NCBI RefSeq assembly: GCF_003334405.1
Contig: NZ_QOWM01000023.1
Direction: 5' to 3' (one strand)
DNA: 45,349 bases
From: Escherichia coli
GTDB lineage: Bacteria; Pseudomonadota; Gammaproteobacteria; Enterobacterales; Enterobacteriaceae
The notes below the pieces were generated by a model. That model was not told the DNA's origin, made no database searches, and saw nothing but the letters and a program-made list of their open reading frames with translations. Below are positions 4,786 to 39,770 of the stretch, in pieces. Every line of letters begins with the position of its first letter. Position 1 is the stretch's first letter. The translations under genes and the position numbers were made by a program.

Positions 4786-5879
<1,094 letters not shown>

Positions 5880-5983
5880 TTTACATCCCGGTAATGCAAC
5901 AAAAGTTAGAGCTTTTAAACGCTGCTACTATACGCGCGCGATTGAGGTTTGGGAATGAGGGCAAGTTAAGGGAGCGTAAAAAT

Positions 5984-6013
5984 TTATGGGCCTGGAGCGG
6001 CCCATAATTTTTT
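5984..6013. terminator. Bidirectional intrinsic-terminator-like hairpin between ybgE and ybgC
   Basis: TTATGGGCCTGGAGCGGCCCATAA palindrome flanked by an A-run on one side and a T-run on the other. It is placed to terminate the cydAB-cydX-ybgE transcript on the minus strand. Confidence 0.45.
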
Positions 6014-6028
6014 AAAGAGAATTCTGAT

Positions 6029-6322
6029 TTAAAAGAAGAAGAAAATCAGCCCGACAATGAGAACAATATCGGCAAGCAATGGGCAAAAAATCCCTTGCCA
6101 AAGAACCTTCTGCGGACGAAAGCCCACGCCGTGAATCACACCAGCACAGACGGCCCACATCAGCAATAAACCATGCCAGATTTCCAGTTCACTGGTCTTC
6201 GCGGCAAAACGAGATGGGTCCCAAAACATACATCCTGCTAACAGAAGCGCCATCACGAAGGAAAGCGCCCGCAGGGGGCGCTTGTCCATTACCGCATACA
6301 AAGTCGCGATAATCTTACTCAT
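6029..6322 (-). CDS. ybgE: Small inner-membrane protein YbgE (cyd operon)
   Basis: 97 aa, hydrophobic, MSKIIATLYAVMDKRPLRALSFVMALLLAGCMFW. Confidence 0.9.
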   Translation of the reverse strand: MSKIIATLYAVMDKRPLRALSFVMALLLAGCMFWDPSRFAAKTSELEIWHGLLLMWAVCAGVIHGVGFRPQKVLWQGIFCPLLADIVLIVGLIFFFF

Positions 6323-6435
6323 CAGATGTCTTCTTGACCGGCTTTGCCTGATTCGACGTGTTCAAGCGCCAGCGCGGTGATTACCCCAAACGAACAGGCA
6401 AGAAGCGTTCCCAGAATCCATGCGAAATACCACAT
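6322..6435 (-). CDS. cydX: Cytochrome bd-I oxidase accessory subunit CydX (37 aa)
   Basis: Hand translation of the minus strand gives MWYFAWILGTLLACSFGVITALALEHVESGKAGQEDI followed by TGA. Absent from the ORF track because it is under 60 aa. Its stop overlaps the ybgE start, and it starts 11 bp after the cydB stop. Confidence 0.9.
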   Translation of the reverse strand: MWYFAWILGTLLACSFGVITALALEHVESGKAGQEDI

Positions 6436-6449
6436 TTTTAGCTCCTTAC

Positions 6450-7604: not shown

Positions 7605-9173
7605 TTAGCGTGCCGGCTGAGTAGTCGTGGAAGACTGCTCAAAGTGATAGCGACCGGTTTTCAGGCTGCTTGGGCCGAGGCGTGCAAACTTGAACATTAA
7701 GAACAATTCTGCCACCAGGAACAGGGTATACAGGCCGCAAATCAGCACCATTGAGAAGATGAGATCGCCTGCGGTCAGTGACGAGTTCGCCACAGCTGTC
7801 GGCAGCACTTCACCGATAGCCCACGGTTGGCGGCCATATTCAGCCACGAACCAGCCCGCTTCTACAGCAATCCACGGCAGCGGAATACCGTACAGCGCGG
7901 CGCGCAGAAGCCATTTTTTCTCGCCAATGCGGTTGCGGATGACACTCCAGAAAGAGAGCGCGATGATTGCCAGAAGCAGGAAGCCACACGCCACCATGAT
8001 ACGGAACGCAAAGTACAGCGGCGCTACACGCGGGATGGAGTCTTTGGTTGCCTGTTGAATCTGCGCTTCAGTCGCATCAGCCACGTTTGGCGTATAGCGT
8101 TTCAGCAGCAGACCGTAACCGAGGTCTTTCTTCATGCTATTGAACTGGTCACGAACCGCCTGGTCGGTAGAACCAGAACGCAGTTGTTCGAGCAGAGAGT
8201 ACGCCTTCATCCCGTTACGAATGCGTTCTTCATGCTGCACCATCAGCTCTTTCAGGCCGATAACCGGGGTATCCACGGAACGCGTTGCAATGATGCCCAG
8301 TGCGTAAGGGATCTGAATCGCAAATTTGTTCGTCTCCTCTTCCTGATCAGGAATGCCGAACAGAGTAAAGGCAGCAGGCGCAGGTTGCGTTTCCCACTCG
8401 GCTTCAATAGCAGCCAGTTTGGTTTTCTGCACGTCGCCCATTTCGTAGCCGGATTCATCACCCAGAACAATAACAGACAGAACAGCAGCCATACCGAAGC
8501 TGGCAGCGATAGCAAAGGAGCGTTTAGCGAAGGCGAAGTCACGACCTTTCAGCATATACCATGCGCTGATACCGAGGATGAACATCGCGCCAGTCACATA
8601 ACCAGACGCTACAGTGTGAACGAATTTCACCTGAGCAACCGGGTTAAGCACCAGCTCGGAGAAGCTCACCATCTCCATACGCATAGTTTCAAAGTTGAAA
8701 TCGGACGCGATTGGGTTTTGCATCCAGCCGTTCGCAACCAGAATCCACAGTGCGGACAGGTTTGAACCGAGCGCCACCAGCCAGGTGACACACATATGCT
8801 GAACTTTACCCAGACGATCCCAACCGAAGAAGAACAGACCTACAAAGGTGGATTCGAGGAAGAAGGCCATCAGACCTTCGATTGCCAGCGGCGCACCGAA
8901 GATATCCCCTACATAGTGGGAATAGTAAGACCAGTTAGTCCCGAACTGGAACTCCATGGTCAGACCGGTAGCCACACCCAGAGCGAAGTTGATACCAAAC
9001 AACTTGCCCCAGAACTTGGTCATATCTTTATAAATCTGTTTGCCGGAGAGGACGTAGACCGTTTCCATAATGGCCAGCAGGAACGCCATACCGAGCGTCA
9101 GTGGCACAAAAAGGAAGTGGTACATCGCGGTCAAGGCAAACTGTAAGCGCGACAGTTCGACTATATCTAACAT
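7605..9173 (-). CDS. cydA: Cytochrome bd-I ubiquinol oxidase subunit I
   Basis: 522 aa from [31 protein letters not shown], including the Q-loop. The ORF-track start at 9176 is one Met upstream. Confidence 0.96.
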
Positions 9174-9455
9174 CATGACTCCTTGCTCATCGCATGAAGA
9201 CTCCGAGAGTGAACCCCGTTAGAAAGGGTCACACGCATGCCCCAATAGAAATTTGTTTGAACACTTTCATCATACCATGTGAATGCACACAAAAACGGCG
9301 TAAAGAAAGGTTGCAAACATGTTAATAAAAACTCAAATTGATCCCACGTATATATTACGCCGCAAAATCCTTACAATAAACAGGTTTTTGTTGAAGCAAA
9401 TTTGCATTTTTCGACGGTGATCAATTTATAGCTAAATCACCGCCTTTCAGCCAAT

Positions 9456-9521
9456 TTGATCGAGAACAATTTATCTCTTTTTGATGCCCATTTCCAAGGC
9501 TTATACATTGATAAATATCAA
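9456..9521. promoter_or_regulatory. cydAB upstream control region with FNR-type palindromes
   Basis: TTGATAAATATCAA (9508-9521) matches the FNR consensus TTGAT-N4-ATCAA exactly. A second near-site, TTGATCGAGAACAA, lies at 9456-9469. Both are about 280-350 bp upstream of the cydA start in an AT-rich 846-bp leader. Confidence 0.45.
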
Positions 9522-10019
9522 TTCCTACAAATTATGTTAATCATGTTTCAATAAGGTAACTTTAGTGACATTTATGTTTAAAATGTGTGAGTTATAAGGC
9601 TGAAATTAGTTTCGGTTGGCAATTAAAGATAAAAAGAGACGAAGCAAAAACAGCACGGTTGACCTTAATTCTTTTTTTGGTCACTGGCTAATACGACGCA
9701 GAGTTTCAGGATTACTAATAAAGGCATAAATCCACCCCGCCAATATTAACATTTAGTTAACTTATAATTATATTATAATTAACTCACCCAGGGTTATTAT
9801 TTTGTTAAAAATAAAGCCACATATACGTGGCTTGAGAGTGAAGATAAACGCAAAATTACCTGATGCGCTACGCTTGCCAGTGTCTACATCATCTCTGCAA
9901 TATATTGAATTTGCCTGCTTTTGTAGACCGAATAAAGCGTTCATGCCGTATCCGGCATGAACAAAGCGCCCTTTGTCAACAATCTGGCCGCGCATATGTG
10001 GCTTCGGTTTGATTGCTAT

Positions 10020-17617: not shown

Positions 17618-17699
17618 GTGTTCTGTCCATCCTTCAGTAATCGTTATCTTTTAAACCGTAGACCGAATATTTCGTATCGCTTCCGGGCATTGTCGGTCA

Positions 17700-17960
17700 C
17701 CCGTAGGCCTGATAAGACACGTTAAACGTCACATCAGGCATCGCTTGTCGGATGCGGCGCTTGCGCCTTATCCGACCTACATTGGTGGTCCCCGTAGGCC
17801 TGATAAGACACGTTAACCGTCACATCAGGCATCGCTTGTCGGATGCGGCGCTAGCGCCTTATCCGACCTACATTGGTGGTCCCGTAGGCCTGATAAGACG
17901 CGTCAGCGTCGCATCAGGCTTCAATTGCCGGAGAAGGCGATAATGCCTTATCCGGTCTAC
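17700..17960. repeat. Tandem array of three ~90-bp BIME/REP units in the sucB-sucC intergenic region
   Basis: Units at 17700-17790 and 17791-17880 are near-identical (two substitutions and one indel by eye). A third, more diverged unit lies at 17881-17960. Each unit holds two REP-type palindromes (GCCTGATAAGAC...GTCACATCAGGC and GTCGGATGCGGCGC..GCGCCTTATCCGAC). Confidence 0.85.
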
Positions 17961-17982
17961 AGTGCAGGTGAAACTTAAACTA

Positions 17983-32952: not shown

Positions 32953-33999
32953 ATGCCAGTTTTGCAGTGGGGAATGTTATGTGTGCTATCACTTCTCCTT
33001 TCTATTGGTTTCCTCGCGGTACATCTCCCGGCGGCGCTATTACTTGGGCCGATGATCGCCGGGATCATCTTTAGTATGCGCGGAATTACTCTGCAACTTC
33101 CCCGCTCTGCTTTTCTCGCCGCCCAGGCCATTCTTGGCTGCATGATTGCGCAAAACCTCACTGGTTCGATTCTCACCACCCTGGCCGTCAACTGGCCGAT
33201 CGTGCTTGCAATTTTACTGGTAACGCTGCTTTCCAGCGCCATTGTGGGTTGGTTATTGGTGCGCTATAGCTCATTGCCTGGAAATACCGGTGCCTGGGGC
33301 TCCTCTCCTGGCGGCGCGGCGGCAATGGTCGCTATGGCGCAAGATTACGGCGCAGATATTCGCCTGGTGGCGTTTATGCAATATCTGCGAGTGCTGTTCG
33401 TCGCGGGGGCCGCTGTTCTGGTCACCCGCATGATGCTGGGCGATAACGCTGAAGCGGTTAACCAGCATATCGTCTGGTTCCCGCCAGTGAGCATTAATCT
33501 CCTGCTTACTATTTTGCTCGCGGTCGTTGCCGGTACAGTGGGATGCCTGCTGCGTCTTCCTTCCGGCACGATGCTCATCCCGATGCTGGCGGGCGCAGTG
33601 CTCCAGTCTGGTCAGCTCATCACCATCGAACTACCGGAATGGCTGCTGGCGATGGCGTATATGGCAATTGGCTGGCGGATTGGTCTTGGTTTCGATAAAC
33701 AAATCTTACTGCGGGCACTACGCCCGCTACCGCAAATCCTGCTGTCGATTTTTGCTCTGCTGGCTATTTGTGCGGGTATGGCGTGGGGGCTGACCCGGTT
33801 TATGCACATTGATTTTATGACTGCCTACCTCGCCACCAGCCCCGGCGGGCTTGATACCGTGGCGGTCATCGCCGCAGGGAGCAATGCCGATATGGCGCTC
33901 ATTATGGCGATGCAAACCCTACGCCTGTTCAGTATTTTGCTGACAGGGCCTGCCATTGCGCGGTTTATTTCAACCTATGCGCCGAAGCGGTCGGCCTAG
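32953..33999 (+). CDS. abrB: AbrB-family putative membrane transporter (regulator of aidB expression)
   Basis: 348 aa polytopic membrane protein from [26 protein letters not shown]. The ORF track extends 26 codons upstream to 32875. Confidence 0.85.
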
Positions 34000-34787
34000 T
34001 GCTGGCAGCCAGGGCACCAGTAAAACGGGCGAGATGACAGCGTGGTTTTCTCAATGATGCTGCCACAACGTTCGCACGGTTCGCCATCTCGATGAAAAAC
34101 CTTAAAGCGAAACAGCGCCCCATGATGCTTATTCTCATCCACCTGCCCCCGCGTAGCGTAGGAAAATCGAGGAATCTCCAGTAACGCGTGTGCGAGTGCA
34201 TCCAGTTGCGCCGCATTGAGATCTTTCGCTTTATGATTTCCAGTCAACCCAACCTGCCAGAGGATCTCCACCCGCAAATAATTGCCAAGCCCAGCCAGAA
34301 ACGCCTGATCGAGCAGTAATCCAGCAAACTGACGGTTACGAAAGCGCGGCGACAATAATCGTTCTTTCACCACCTCCGGCGTCAGATTCGGATCCAGCAC
34401 ATCGGGACCAACGCGTTGTAAAAACGGATGCGTGGTCAGTTGTTCCGGGGTCAACATCTCAATATCCGAGGCGCTATAAAGCAGAATGGTTTTGTCAGCC
34501 GTTTGCAGTTTTACCCGCAATACTCGCGTGGTCTGCGGCTCTTCGCCGGTATCAACCACGCGCCAGACGCCGTAAAGCTGATTATGGCTGTAGAGCGTTA
34601 AGTCGTTGGAAAAATGAGTTAACAACGCCTTACCACGCGTTTCCACATGGGTAACGTGTTGACCGATAAGTTGTGATTGATAAGGTTTTAACTGCGGGAA
34701 GGCAAACCAGACATCAGTTAGTGGTTTGCCTTTGATCGCCGCCTCCAGGTTATCCGCTGCACGGCGGATCTCCGGGCCTTCAGGCAT
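33996..34787 (-). CDS. nei: Endonuclease VIII (Fpg/Nei-family DNA glycosylase)
   Basis: 263 aa, [21 protein letters not shown] (catalytic N-terminal Pro), C-terminal zinc finger [24 protein letters not shown]. Confidence 0.96.
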
Positions 34788-34822
34788 GGTGATATCCTTT
34801 TTTCATTCTTTATTAATCGGGG

Positions 34823-35557
34823 TTATGCTGCGACAACAATCCCCTTTTCGGCAAATGCAGAGCGTAGTCGGCGGGCGAACGCCAGTGCGTGCTCGCCGTC
34901 GCCATGCAGGCAGACCGTTTGCGCCGCGACCGTTGCCCATTCGCCGGTGATACTTTTGACTCTGCCGTGTTGCACCATCTCCAGCGTTTGCGCCAGCGCC
35001 TGTTCTTCGTTTTCAATCAACGCGCCTGACTGGCTTCGCGGCACCAGCGAGCCGTCAGCCTGATAACCGCGATCGGCAAACACTTCCTCGCGCGTTGTCA
35101 GACCATATTGCTTGCCTGCACGAATCAGCTCGCTTCCCGCCAGCCCGACGAGAATCAATGCTGGATCGCAAGCGTATACCGCTCTGGCGATGGCGTCTGC
35201 CAGTTGTGCTTCTTTCGCCGCCTGGTTGTACAACATGCCGTGCGGTTTGACATGACGCATTACGCCGCCTTGCGCACGGGCAATCGTTGCCAGCGCGCCA
35301 ATTTGATACAGCGTCTGGGCGTAAACGGTTTCTGGCGGCAGCTGCATGGCGCTGCGACCAAAATTTTCCCTGTCGGGAAAACTCGGGTGAGCGCCAATCG
35401 CGACACCATTTTTTATTGCTTCACGCACGCAAGCCTGCATGATTTGCGCATCGCCTGCATGAAATCCACAGGCAATATTGGCAGAGGAAACCAGCGTTAA
35501 TAGCTCTGCGTCGCTGGCGCAGCCTTCGCCCAGATCGGCGTTCAGGTCAATTTTCAT
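34823..35557 (-). CDS. pxpA: 5-oxoprolinase subunit A (LamB/YcsF family)
   Basis: 244 aa, [36 protein letters not shown]. Confidence 0.93.
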
Positions 35558-36479
35558 TGTGCAGCCGCCACGCTAATTGTTCAAAATAACGTTGCTGATC
35601 TTGCCGTGCTTTTAGTGCCTCTTCCAGTGAACACTGGACAAAATGAATCGGCTGACCGAGCGGAATTTGCGCCAGATGGTACATATCAGCCTCAATGATA
35701 CAGGCAATACGCGGGTAACCACCGGTGGTCTGTGCGTCGTTCATCAACACAATCGGCTGCCCGTTATGTGGCACCTGCACCACGCCCGGTAACAAACCGT
35801 GAGATAACAGTTCGCGATCGGTGGTGCGTTTTAAAATTTGCCCCTGTAAGCGATAGCCCATGCGGTTACTTTGCGAGCTAAGCTGCCAGGGCGAACGCCA
35901 GAATGCATCCTGCGAGGCGCGATCGAACTCATGATATTCCGGCCCCGGCAAGGCGCGAATGCGGTTGCCCCACAGCAGCTGTTTAACGCCCTGCGCTTCC
36001 ATAGAATCACGCTTCGATTTGCCAATCGGGAGTCGGTCACCATCCTTCAGTAAACGGCCTTCCAGCCCGCCAATCCCCACTTTGAGATCGGTGCTGCATG
36101 AGCCCATTACCGGCGGAACATCAATACCACCCGCGACCGCCAGATAACTGCGCATCCCGTGCTGCGGGCGTTTAAGCGTTAAACGCTGGCCTGCTTTCAT
36201 CGGCAATCGCCAGCCGGTCCAGACGGCATTATCATCCAGCCGCGCTTCGCAACCGGCACCCGTCAGAGCAAACCACCCATCAGTTTCGAACTCAACAGTT
36301 AACTGACCGAGCGTGATCTCCAGCGCGGGGGCATTGGCGTCATTACCCACCAGTAGGTTAGCAATGCGTAACGCGGGCATATCCAGTGCGCCGCAGTGGC
36401 TGATACCCGACTGGCGAAAACCGTGACGACCGCCATCCTGCACAGTGGTATACATGCCCGCACGAATAATCTTCAGCAT
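35547..36479 (-). CDS. pxpC: 5-oxoprolinase subunit C (allophanate hydrolase subunit 2-like)
   Basis: 310 aa, [33 protein letters not shown]; overlaps pxpA and pxpB. Confidence 0.92.
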
Positions 36480-37129
36480 ACTCCCTCCTTCTGCGGTACA
36501 AAGCGCACGCTGTCTCCCGGACGTAATAAGATGGGTTCGTCACGCGCCGGATCAAACAGGCTGAGTGAGGTATGACCAATCAACTGCCAGCCACCCGGCG
36601 TTGCCAGCGGATAAACACCAGTCTGCGGCCCGCCGATCCCGACAGAACCTGCCGGAACGAGTAAGCGCGGTTCAGCGCGCCGTGGCGTGTGTAGTTGTTC
36701 CGGCAAACTCCCGAGATACGGGAAGCCCGGTTGAAAACCTAAAAACCAGACCACGTATTCCACGGAGGAGTGCAATTCAACAACCTGTTTTTCGCTCAAC
36801 CCGCAATGCGCCGCGACCACCGCCAAATCCGGTCCGCCTGCACCACCGTAAACCACCGGAATTTCAATAAAGCGAGACTCCGGCTCCAGCGCCTCGCTCT
36901 CCTCCCACCAGCGTTGCAAACGCTCTATGGCATCCAGCGCCAGCGACTCAGGATTACGCAAAATCACCGTGATATTGTTCATGCCGGGAATGGCTTCAAC
37001 CACATTCGGCATATCCACCAGACGCTGCGCCAGTCGCCAGATCCGTTTCTGGCTAGCCAGCGTCACCGGCGGTTCCAGTTCCAGCACTACCGCCGTTTCA
37101 CCTATCAGATAACAACGCGCTCGTTGCAC
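36473..37129 (-). CDS. pxpB: 5-oxoprolinase subunit B (allophanate hydrolase subunit 1-like)
   Basis: 218 aa, [31 protein letters not shown]. Confidence 0.92.
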
Positions 37130-37151
37130 TTTCGATCCCTCTGATTATTCG

Positions 37152-37895
37152 TTATGCAGGATTAGGAATATCAATAAAGGTCACATCAAGATCGGTATTT
37201 TCATTCAGCCACTCGCTCAATGCGCGAATACCACCACGTTCAGTGGCATGGTGACCTGCAGCATAAAAATGCAATCCCTGCTCGCGGGCTGAATGAATGG
37301 TCTGTTCAGAAACTTCGCCAGTAATAAAAGCATCCACGCCAAAACGCGCGGCGCTATCGATAAAACTTTGCCCGCCGCCCGTGCACCAGGCGACGCGCTG
37401 GACCACCTCAGGTCCGGTATCGCCACACCATAACGGCTTACGTCCCAGACGCGCTTCAATCCAGGAAGCCAGCTCCAGTCCCGGCACAGGCATGGTCAGT
37501 TCGCCCCACGGCACCAACGGCTCAATTTCGCCCATGACCGTGATCCCCAGTAACGCCGCCAGCTGTGCGTTATTGCCCAGCTCAGGATGTGCGTCAAGCG
37601 GCAAATGCCAGCCATACAGGTTGATATCATTCGCCAGCAACGTTTTTAAACGGTTACGCTTCATTCCGCGAATGACCGGAGACTCTCCTTTCCAGAAGTA
37701 GCCATGATGCACAATGACCGCATCCGCGCCCAGACGCACTGCCTCATCGAGCAAAGCCTGGCTGGCGGTGACACCGGTAACAATTTTTTGCACCGTCTCT
37801 TTGCCTTCCACCTGCAAACCATTCGGCGCGTAATCACTAATCGCCGCGCTGTTCAGTTTTTCGTTAATCAGTTGTTCCAGTTCGGTGTTTTTCAT
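37152..37895 (-). CDS. ybgI: Nif3-family metal-binding protein YbgI (GTP cyclohydrolase 1 type 2 homologue)
   Basis: 247 aa, MKNTELEQLINEKLNSAAISDYAPNGLQVEGKETVQKIVTGVTASQALLDEAVRLGADAVIVHHG. Confidence 0.93.
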   Translation of the reverse strand: MKNTELEQLINEKLNSAAISDYAPNGLQVEGKETVQKIVTGVTASQALLDEAVRLGADAVIVHHGYFWKGESPVIRGMKRNRLKTLLANDINLYGWHLPLDAHPELGNNAQLAALLGITVMGEIEPLVPWGELTMPVPGLELASWIEARLGRKPLWCGDTGPEVVQRVAWCTGGGQSFIDSAARFGVDAFITGEVSEQTIHSAREQGLHFYAAGHHATERGGIRALSEWLNENTDLDVTFIDIPNPA

Positions 37896-37982
37896 CTTCG
37901 CGCCTTCCGTATTCTGATAGCTACACCGTTAACATAGCGTTACCTCGCCAGTTCGTCGATAGCCAATCTTTTGACATATTAA

Positions 37983-39647
<1,665 letters not shown>

Positions 39648-39662
39648 TAGGCCAGCACCGAT

Positions 39663-39770
39663 GCCTGATGCGACGCTTGACGCGTCTTATCAGGCCTACG
39701 TATTTCCTGCAATTTATTGAATTTGCACAAATTTGTAGGCTGGATAAGGCGTTCACGCCGCATCCGGCAT
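39663..39770. repeat. REP (BIME) palindromic units between dtpD and phr
   Basis: GCCTGATGCGACGCTTGACGCGTCTTATCAGGCCTAC and the inverted GTAGGCTGGATAAGGCGTTCACGCCGCATCCGGC, separated by an AT-rich spacer. Confidence 0.85.

Follow-up and report, generated by a model that had tools for sequence, protein, structure and literature searches.

In Escherichia coli, ybgI, the 5-oxoprolinase genes pxpB, pxpC and pxpA, and the endonuclease VIII gene nei very probably owe their common place in one transcription unit to the history of the locus, and not to a shared biochemistry. This historical explanation is favoured because pxp can be found without nei and nei without pxp. The ybgI-pxpBCA-nei operon itself, its enzymes and its transcription are already known, and have been in the literature and databases for years.

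Results

Gene Order and Junctions

The window, by which we mean the whole stretch of DNA analysed (45,349 nt, E. coli contig NZ_QOWM01000023.1), carries five genes on its minus strand in the order ybgI, pxpB, pxpC, pxpA and nei. The genes, and the junctions as read from the sequence, are as follows.

37895..37152, minus strand: ybgI, ATG start, 247 aa, encoding the Nif3/DUF34 dinuclear-metal protein YbgI; heads the string
37130..37151, minus strand: ybgI-pxpB spacer, 22 nt, with a Shine-Dalgarno-like AGAGGGA ahead of the GTG
37129..36473, minus strand: pxpB (ybgJ), GTG start, 218 aa
36473..36479, minus strand: pxpB/pxpC overlap, 7 nt (ATGCTGA)
36479..35547, minus strand: pxpC (ybgK), ATG start, 310 aa
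35547..35557, minus strand: pxpC/pxpA overlap, 11 nt (ATGAAAATTGA)
35557..34823, minus strand: pxpA (ybgL), ATG start, 244 aa
34788..34822, minus strand: pxpA-nei spacer, 35 nt, carrying the ribosome-binding site AAAGGA
34787..33996, minus strand: nei, ATG start, 263 aa, encoding endonuclease VIII; last gene of the string

From ybgI to nei, the junctions measure +22, -7, -11 and +35 nt in turn, and GAAGGAGGGAG lies within pxpB just ahead of its overlap with pxpC. The initial annotation, which described four same-strand genes followed by nei, had given these junctions exactly to the base; the placement on the minus strand is absent from it. Since bacterial operons normally have short or overlapping junctions, those of this string are statistically unremarkable. 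The 3' end of nei is overlapped by 4 nt by the convergent abrB.

Positions 33900-38200 of the window are 100% identical to the DNA of E. coli K-12, and the RefSeq annotation of that identical DNA agrees in gene ends and product names, with no difference in the region from the K-12 ybgI-ybgJ-ybgK-ybgL-nei operon (now ybgI-pxpBCA-nei). In comparison with the MG1655 record CP032667.1, the window has 91 extra bases in the sucB-sucC spacer, outside this region, and so probably comes from a different strain. The region was found under these gene names in 5423 of 5426 complete E. coli genomes. GC content is uniform across the string (53.5-57.5%), with no discontinuity along it pointing to recent horizontal transfer. 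Rfam gave no match in the region at its gathering thresholds, nor when E-values up to 1 were allowed.

Products of the Five Genes

All five proteins scored above the NCBIfam curated cut-offs (YbgI/Nif3, PxpB, PxpC, PxpA and endonuclease VIII), confirming the gene identities assigned initially. YbgI, identical to PDB 1NMO/1NMP, gave 276.9 bits on TIGR00486 (cut-off 130.55) over residues 1-246, a full-length Nif3/DUF34 match, and belongs to the YbgI type of this family, without the YqfO insert. The dinuclear metal site, for which the residue set is given in PMC8469502, has its His, Asp and Glu ligands in place: among 52 homologues, down to 35% identity, H64, H215 and E219 were invariant and H63, H97 and D101 were at least 90% conserved. 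The best 120 matches of a protein word-index search with YbgI were all relatives of at least 75% identity; diverse homologues were taken from a representative-library search, and an alignment of 15 closer YbgI sequences was used in the genome scan for ybgI loci. YbgI also gave 531.6 bits on NF008064 (cut-off 414), the name of which is type 2 GTP cyclohydrolase I. We did not adopt this name, since, according to PMC8469502, ybgI fails to complement folE mutants and the name is over-propagated. Two apparent fusions were likewise set aside as Rosetta-stone evidence: a YbgI-PxpB protein (P0002), which is an in-frame deletion in a single record, and a YbgI-Rep chimera (P0008), also seen in one record only, both with 97-100% identity to E. 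coli.

The three separate subunits of 5-oxoprolinase were each recognised: PxpB as subunit B (355.6 bits on TIGR00370, cut-off 145.55), PxpC as subunit C (591.8 bits on NF045499, cut-off 500) and PxpA, of the LamB/YcsF family, as subunit A (511.8 bits on NF003812, cut-off 378). The earlier statement that PxpABC form the bacterial 5-oxoprolinase is correct. PxpA is identical to PDB 1XW8, and PxpB residues 1-218 are identical to chain B of PDB 5DUD, named YbgJ. The latter entry is the YbgJ-YbgK complex, that is, PxpB and PxpC co-crystallised; the complex and the clustering of the genes with 7- and 11-nt overlaps agree with membership of PxpABC. The enzyme converts 5-oxo-L-proline to L-glutamate in an ATP-dependent manner, according to the summary of Niehaus et al. 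2017 contained in PMC13274462, where the roles of PxpA, PxpB and PxpC are also described. We assume that 5-oxoproline is phosphorylated at the expense of ATP by PxpB and PxpC, and that PxpA opens the ring to give glutamate. The same 7-nt pxpB/pxpC overlap recurred in 26 of 27 related loci and is the sole constrained junction of the string; the pxpC/pxpA junction varied among relatives (11-nt overlap, 8-nt overlap or small gap). Through their overlapping stop and start codons, pxpB, pxpC and pxpA may be translationally coupled, an arrangement that suits subunits of one enzyme.

Nei gave 504.8 bits on NF007763 (cut-off 252). Its translation begins with MPEGPE, including the catalytic Pro2-Glu3 of the Fpg/Nei proteins, and has a C-terminal CxxC...CxxC zinc finger (...CERCGS...WCPGCQH).

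Transcription Unit and Upstream Region

The five genes share one strand, have junctions too short for promoters and have no terminators between them. A consensus promoter/terminator scan detected nothing promoter- or terminator-like at any junction, and its counts did not exceed those of shuffled sequences (terminator-like, 11 versus 6.2 +/- 2.9). That ybgI-pxpB-pxpC-pxpA-nei is co-transcribed is taken from the literature: the title of Gifford & Wallace 2000 (NAR 28:762) describes the transcription of nei as the last gene of an operon, and the operon table in PMC4448311 lists nei, ybgI, ybgJ, ybgK and ybgL as one unit. The operon mapping suggested in the initial annotation had, going by that title, already been published.

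Transcription of the unit would start in the divergent dtpD-ybgI intergenic region, and nei would be its last gene, without a promoter of its own. Two features of this region may be relevant.

37931..37959, minus strand: candidate sigma-70 promoter, -35 TCGACG (37959-37954), 17-nt spacer, -10 TATGTT (37936-37931)
38043..38076, no strand assigned: perfect 12-nt inverted repeat, TATTTATGCAAT-N10-ATTGCATAAATA

Both hexamers of the candidate promoter lie in blocks invariant across nine Enterobacteriaceae genera, and the spacer varies. It matches the consensus at 8 of 12 positions and was missed by the scan because the threshold was 9/12. The inverted repeat, a candidate operator, also lies within a block invariant across the nine genera and is at least 99% identical in 5260 of the 5423 E. 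coli genomes. We found no further copies of the palindrome, as a possible regulon would have, across E. coli genomes, in which it is single-copy.

Comparison of ybgI Loci

We mapped the neighbours of ybgI in 80 gammaproteobacterial loci, 34 from Enterobacterales and 46 from other orders. The sampling was centred on ybgI; outside Enterobacterales, pxp-centred loci were taken from published accounts of B. subtilis and C. glutamicum. The genes pxpB-pxpC were found downstream of ybgI in 27 loci, all from Enterobacterales (27/34), and pxpA in 22. They were within 8 kb of ybgI in none of the 46 loci from Pasteurellales, Vibrionales, Alteromonadales, Aeromonadales and Orbales, and near none of four more distant YbgI homologues (37-41% identity), whose neighbours were unrelated. 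The linkage described initially as conserved is thus confined to part of one order. Nor did ybgI and pxp show a phyletic correlation across the sampled genomes, because ybgI was present in every sampled locus and pxp was patchy. A comparative study of DUF34 gives COG1579 as the commonest neighbour and leaves the Pxp COGs unmentioned. The 'Beyond BLAST' paper (PMC10926702) contains no statement about pxp neighbours.

Elsewhere, the neighbours of ybgI were gltA, DegP-like proteases, TrkH and TolQRA. In 12 Vibrionaceae loci, a convergent gltA, with sdhC and sdhA behind it, lay 87-243 nt from ybgI, and the distance to gltA was 0.35-2.3 kb in four Morganellaceae loci. The orthologous ybgI of these two families (55-71% identity) has no pxp, pcp, nei or phrB beside it, and we take this arrangement, next to gltA-sdhCDAB, as the backbone state. 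In 17 of the Enterobacterales loci with pxp, the string ends directly, or nearly so, before gltA.

The content of the string varied among Enterobacterales. Seven loci had pxp without nei (L014, L016, L023, L024, L026, L031 and L033), two had nei without pxp (L013 and L040), and four lacked both (L022, L025, L027 and L030). The ybgI-pxpB gap was 14-46 nt in Enterobacteriaceae. Wider gaps were seen in Erwiniaceae, Pectobacteriaceae and Serratia (106-227 nt), Yersinia (about 420 nt) and Rahnella (1.8 kb). In Citrobacter, Pseudocitrobacter, Enterobacter sp., Pantoea and Serratia, three genes lie between pxpA and nei, encoding DUF969 (PF06149, E 8.6e-89), DUF979 (PF06166, E 3.7e-118) and pyroglutamyl-peptidase I (pcp; 330 bits); DUF969/DUF979 is a probable 5-oxoproline transporter (PMC12795558, PMC6904757). 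Immediately upstream of nei, 21 loci had pcp (12), pxpA (5), pxpC (2) or ybgI (2). The adjacency of pxpA and nei seen in E. coli is a minority state, and by this comparison of gene orders a derived one.

The fullest locus, ybgA-phrB-ybgI-pxpB-pxpC-pxpA-DUF969-DUF979-pcp-nei, occurs for example in Citrobacter werkmanii (L002), Pantoea stewartii (L017) and Serratia plymuthica (L020). It resembles that of E. coli in order, strand and pxpB/pxpC overlap, with ybgI first and nei last and then a convergent gltA or other genes. Unlike it, the E. coli locus lacks DUF969, DUF979 and pcp; its phrB and ybgI are separated by dtpD, inserted on the other strand, and its nei and gltA by abrB and the ybgOPQD fimbrial genes. 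The Gram-positive clusters (C. glutamicum pxpR / pxpTABC and B. subtilis pxpA-ycsG...) contain the same three subunits with a 5-oxoproline transporter, but differ from E. coli in their A-B-C order, an APC/YcsG-type transporter and a dedicated GntR regulator, PxpR; their description in PMC13274462 mentions no Nif3 gene or glycosylase.

Discussion

The initial annotation regarded the linkage of pxp to ybgI and nei as unexplained, while allowing that it may reflect only operon history. The comparison of loci bears out the latter suggestion and offers an explanation for the former. An old backbone, with ybgI convergent to gltA-sdhCDAB as in Vibrionaceae and Morganellaceae, would have had its gap downstream of ybgI filled in an ancestor of Enterobacteriaceae, Erwiniaceae, Pectobacteriaceae and Yersiniaceae. 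The filler would have been a pyroglutamate-salvage module (pxpBCA, the putative 5-oxoproline transporter DUF969/DUF979 and the pyroglutamyl peptidase pcp) plus nei, with ybgA-phrB directly upstream of ybgI on the same strand. The Escherichia lineage probably then lost DUF969-DUF979-pcp, which would account for the 35-nt pxpA-nei junction, and dtpD would have been inserted between phrB and ybgI in the Escherichia/Citrobacter/Kluyvera group. This order of events is a parsimony reading of the 80 loci, made without an explicit species tree. PxpB, PxpC, PxpA, Nei and PhrB diverge in step with YbgI (Spearman 0.75-0.96); this and the uniform GC content agree with a locus that was assembled once and then inherited vertically. 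That four families have kept the string, and that its ybgI-pxpB gap has shrunk to 14-46 nt in Enterobacteriaceae, is compatible with some selective benefit of co-expression.

An alternative, which we consider unlikely though not negligible, is that the real association is ybgA-phrB-ybgI-nei, joining photolyase, YbgI and endonuclease VIII in response to DNA damage, and that the pyroglutamate module is an interloper between ybgI and nei. The genes phrB-ybgI-nei are contiguous without pxp in Budvicia (L040) and Klebsiella sp. BIGb0407 (L013), with gaps of 16-90 nt. In addition, 29 Enterobacterales and two Alteromonadaceae loci (L066 and L073) have a same-strand phrB upstream of ybgI, and in 15 of these the two genes adjoin directly (13-71 nt). 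However, both pxp-less loci are equally explicable as secondary losses, and the Budvicia ybgA-phrB-ybgI-nei order could, on this comparison, represent such a loss instead of a pre-insertion state; moreover, in most sampled Gammaproteobacteria ybgI adjoins none of phrB, nei and ybgA. RefSeq names the product 'radiation resistance protein YbgI', and the DUF34 review cites reports of ssDNA binding and a UV-damage context, but according to the same review the ssDNA-binding reports 'came under scrutiny', and a literature search for ybgI and radiation returned nothing useful, including no accessible primary paper for the radiation phenotype. Such an association would be compatible with a historical explanation of the pxp linkage. 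Slightly more doubtful is its fuller form, a genuine Enterobacterales DNA-damage-tolerance string in which YbgI would work with photolyase and endonuclease VIII, for instance as a supplier of metal or cofactor or through an action of its own on damaged nucleic acid; the pyroglutamate module would have been inserted later, and the invariant dtpD-ybgI palindrome would serve as the operator of the unit's regulator.

Functional coupling appears improbable. Under this proposal, YbgI would load metal into PxpA and/or the zinc finger of Nei as part of a shared pathway. A role as metal chaperone or insertase has been proposed for DUF34, with metal-dependent proteins enriched among its neighbours (PMC8469502); Nei does possess a CxxC...CxxC zinc finger, and 27 Enterobacterales loci retain the string, in Enterobacteriaceae with very little space between ybgI and pxpB. 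Against this, the linkage is absent from all 46 other gammaproteobacterial loci and the four distant homologues, ybgI keeps different company there (gltA, proteases, TrkH and TolQRA), the wider gaps outside Enterobacteriaceae leave space for a separate pxp promoter, and the lone YbgI 'fusion' is a single-record deletion.

That ybgI, pxpBCA and nei are merely adjacent units, each with its own promoter inside the upstream coding sequence, is highly improbable: although the consensus scan gave no strong promoter upstream of ybgI either and weak promoters could hide anywhere, there is no room for intergenic promoters in the overlaps or in the gaps of 22 and 35 nt, the junctions have no terminator-like site, nei lies at most 90 nt behind whichever gene precedes it in 19 of 21 loci, as a terminal gene with no promoter of its own would, and both the title of Gifford & Wallace and the published operon table speak for a single unit.

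With operon history as the preferred explanation, the neighbours of ybgI in E. coli are lineage-specific fillers of a variable gap, so that inferring the function of YbgI from them would be unwise; they are a poor guide to the role of this uncharacterised Nif3 protein. The E. coli locus is, in turn, a trimmed form of a fuller pyroglutamate-salvage locus, which elsewhere includes the transporter and the peptidase.

Organization of the ybgI-pxpBCA-nei string

Five consecutive genes were placed by listing ORFs and reading the sequence directly:

37895..37152, minus strand: ybgI, start ATG, 247 aa
37129..36473, minus strand: pxpB, start GTG, 218 aa
36479..35547, minus strand: pxpC, start ATG, 310 aa
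35557..34823, minus strand: pxpA, start ATG, 244 aa
34787..33996, minus strand: nei, start ATG, 263 aa

The junctions described in the initial annotation, which was silent on the minus-strand orientation of these same-strand genes, are exact: a gap of 22 nt between ybgI and pxpB, overlaps of 7 nt (ATGCTGA) at pxpB/pxpC and 11 nt (ATGAAAATTGA) at pxpC/pxpA, and a gap of 35 nt between pxpA and nei. On sequence reading, purine-rich elements resembling Shine-Dalgarno sequences lie 5' of pxpB (AGAGGGA), pxpC (GAAGGAGGGAG) and nei (AAAGGA), and GGAAGG precedes ybgI; none was evident upstream of pxpA, which starts within the pxpC 3' end. Positions 33900-38200 match E. coli K-12 and other strains at 100% identity, and of 5426 complete E. 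coli genomes, 5423 carry this stretch at no less than 95% identity. The RefSeq gene ends agree with those listed above, and the names given there are ybgI ("radiation resistance protein YbgI"), pxpB, pxpC, pxpA and nei. All five proteins pass the NCBIfam curated cut-offs, and three have PDB entries of identical sequence: YbgI (1NMO), PxpA (1XW8) and PxpB (5DUD chain B). In both sequence and annotation, the string is the same as the E. coli ybgIJKL-nei (ybgI-pxpBCA-nei) operon already known, and PxpABC is an established enzyme, the 5-oxoprolinase, as had been stated.

The string is flanked by the convergent abrB, which overlaps the 3' end of nei by 4 nt (33996-33999), and by dtpD, divergent from ybgI across a 270-nt spacer; phrB and ybgA also adjoin the region in E. 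coli. No terminator-like site was found on the nei strand in the ~300 nt scanned past the nei stop (33700-33995), and the nei and abrB transcripts must therefore enter each other's coding sequence.

Transcription of the string and candidate control sites

Because the genes overlap or lie so close together, there is no intergenic space for promoters, and a consensus scan found no promoter- or terminator-like sites at the junctions; its count of terminator-like sites, 11, was not above that in shuffled sequences (6.2 +/- 2.9). A search of Rfam with E-values of up to 1 matched nothing in this region. The genes nei, ybgI, ybgJ, ybgK and ybgL form a single unit in a published operon table (PMC4448311). 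Operon mapping of the string is already in the literature. When the dtpD-ybgI spacer was aligned across nine Enterobacteriaceae genera, two invariant blocks holding the hexamers TCGACG and TATGTT were found, with 17 variable bases between them. We propose these hexamers as the predicted promoter of the string; they match 8/12 consensus positions, which is under the threshold of the consensus scan. The spacer also holds a perfect inverted repeat, within a block of ~32 nt that is invariant in the nine genera and single-copy in E. coli genomes.

37959-37931, minus strand: candidate ybgI promoter, hexamers TCGACG and TATGTT
38043-38076, dtpD-ybgI divergent spacer: perfect 12-nt inverted repeat, TATTTATGCAAT-N10-ATTGCATAAATA
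39692-39734, minus strand, between dtpD and phrB: match to the ES036 (CssrF) sRNA, Rfam 75.1 bits vs threshold 37.6

The inverted repeat looks like a candidate operator through which a regulator would act on dtpD, the ybgI operon or both. Elsewhere in the window, the sucC-sucB/odhB spacer (17618-17982) is 365 nt long, but the MG1655 record CP032667.1 has 274 nt there; the 91-nt difference falls among REP/naRNA4 units (Rfam matches at 17706-17777 and 17797-17868). On this ground the window probably comes from a strain other than MG1655.

Extent of the ybgI-pxp linkage

YbgI was searched against a 50%-identity representative library, and an alignment of 15 homologues (46-100% identity) was scanned on one genome per GTDB species. 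This gave 80 loci with 8-kb flanks, on which the E. coli neighbours were placed by tblastn and all flanking ORFs were clustered. The linkage, which the initial annotation had called conserved, is confined to part of Enterobacterales: pxpB-pxpC lie downstream of ybgI in 27 of the 80 loci (Enterobacteriaceae, Erwiniaceae, Pectobacteriaceae and Yersiniaceae), and pxpA in 22. Within the 8-kb flanks, pxp genes were absent at ybgI in Photorhabdus, Xenorhabdus and Providencia (L022, L025, L027, L030), Budvicia (L040), Klebsiella sp. BIGb0407 (L013) and one Enterobacterales-labelled MAG (L036), and in all 46 loci of Pasteurellales, Vibrionales, Alteromonadales, Aeromonadales and Orbales. Four YbgI homologues of 37-41% identity have unrelated neighbours (a DegP-like protease, TrkH, TolQRA), and no Pfam domains of Pxp, Fpg/Nei or photolyase were found beside them. 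In a published DUF34 neighbourhood study, COG1579 is the most frequent partner, and the Pxp COGs are not mentioned.

Five loci (L006, L012, L014, L031, L033) carry pxpB-pxpC downstream of ybgI and no pxpA; the missing gene may be located at another site in the genome, or else the enzyme lacks a subunit. In two of the five, L006 and L012, pxpC is directly followed by nei.

Layout of the locus in relatives

Twelve Vibrionaceae loci have a convergent gltA 87-243 nt downstream of ybgI, with sdhC and sdhA beyond it; Morganellaceae share the ybgI-gltA layout, with 0.35-2.3 kb between. We take ybgI convergent with gltA-sdhC-sdhA as the probable backbone. In pxp-bearing Enterobacterales, the ybgI-gltA gap holds pxpB-pxpC-pxpA and up to three further genes before nei, co-directional with ybgI. 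These encode a DUF969 protein (PF06149, E 8.6e-89), a DUF979 protein (PF06166, E 3.7e-118) and pyroglutamyl-peptidase I (pcp; NF009676, 330 bits). DUF969/DUF979 form a probable 5-oxoproline transporter co-occurring with bacterial oxoprolinase (PMC12795558; also PMC6904757), a C. jejuni mutant lacking them does not use 5-oxoproline (PMC12795558), and pyroglutamyl peptidase frees 5-oxoproline from peptides (PMC13274462). Given these roles, pxpBCA-DUF969-DUF979-pcp makes a coherent module for pyroglutamate salvage. In E. coli and E. albertii, DUF969, DUF979 and pcp are all missing, and their loss is the probable reason that nei stands 35 nt after pxpA there.

The upstream neighbour of nei in 21 loci is pcp (12), pxpA (5), pxpC (2) or ybgI (2), with a gap of at most 90 nt in 19, the behaviour expected of a promoter-less terminal gene. 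Seven loci have pxp without nei, two nei without pxp, and four neither. Spacers as short as 14-46 nt between ybgI and pxpB are confined to Enterobacteriaceae. Erwiniaceae, Pectobacteriaceae and Serratia have 106-227 nt there, Yersinia has ~420 nt, and Rahnella has 1.8 kb, which includes an opposite-strand MFS transporter gene. On the other side, 15 Enterobacterales loci have ybgA-phrB 13-71 nt upstream of ybgI and co-directional with it, and dtpD intervenes in the Escherichia/Citrobacter/Kluyvera group alone. The E. coli locus further has abrB and the fimbrial genes ybgOPQD between nei and gltA.

In six loci of Serratia, Yersinia and Rahnella (L015, L020, L023, L024, L028, L029), phrB and ybgI are separated by one more gene on their strand. 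Its product of ~350-400 aa has an HAHLDH motif, as is typical of the metallo-beta-lactamase fold. In a Kluyvera locus (L004, 11256-12149), ORFs of 118 and 163 aa, neither with an NCBIfam match, fill the pxpA-nei gap instead of DUF969-DUF979-pcp.

Coupling of pxpB and pxpC

Of the 27 loci, 26 share the 7-nt pxpB/pxpC overlap, and the remaining one, in Yersinia aldovae (L023), has a disrupted pxpB; the pxpC/pxpA junction varies among an 11-nt overlap, an 8-nt overlap and small gaps. The pxpB/pxpC overlap looks to be the one junction of the string under constraint, and it fits translational coupling of two subunits. Entry 5DUD is PxpB (YbgJ) crystallised together with PxpC (YbgK). The two are assumed to carry out the ATP-dependent step jointly (PMC13274462). 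In the Y. aldovae locus, the tblastn matches of phrB and pxpB are split (5363-6445 and 9161-9810), and both are probably pseudogenes.

History or function

One functional explanation is that phrB-ybgI-nei is a DNA-damage string and pxp an interloper. The three genes are contiguous in Budvicia and L013, and RefSeq calls YbgI a radiation resistance protein; overall, this explanation has little support. The idea that YbgI is a metal insertase for its neighbours (from PMC8469502) likewise finds little. The label "type 2 GTP cyclohydrolase I" does not suit YbgI, as ybgI did not complement a folE mutant (PMC8469502). Two chimeric database proteins retrieved with YbgI are each a single record: one joins it in frame to a truncated PxpB (P0002, 425 aa), the other joins it to a plasmid Rep-like tail (P0008, 360 aa). 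They look like deletions or assembly/cloning artefacts, not natural fusions.

Divergence of PxpB, PxpC, PxpA, Nei and PhrB follows that of YbgI (Spearman 0.75-0.96), and GC content is even (53.5-57.5%), both as expected if the locus was assembled once and then inherited vertically. The ybgI-pxp and pxp-nei links are best read as history. The earlier guess of operon history proved sound on mapping of neighbours in the 80 loci: a variable gap beside ybgI would have been filled, and the filled gap later trimmed in Escherichia.
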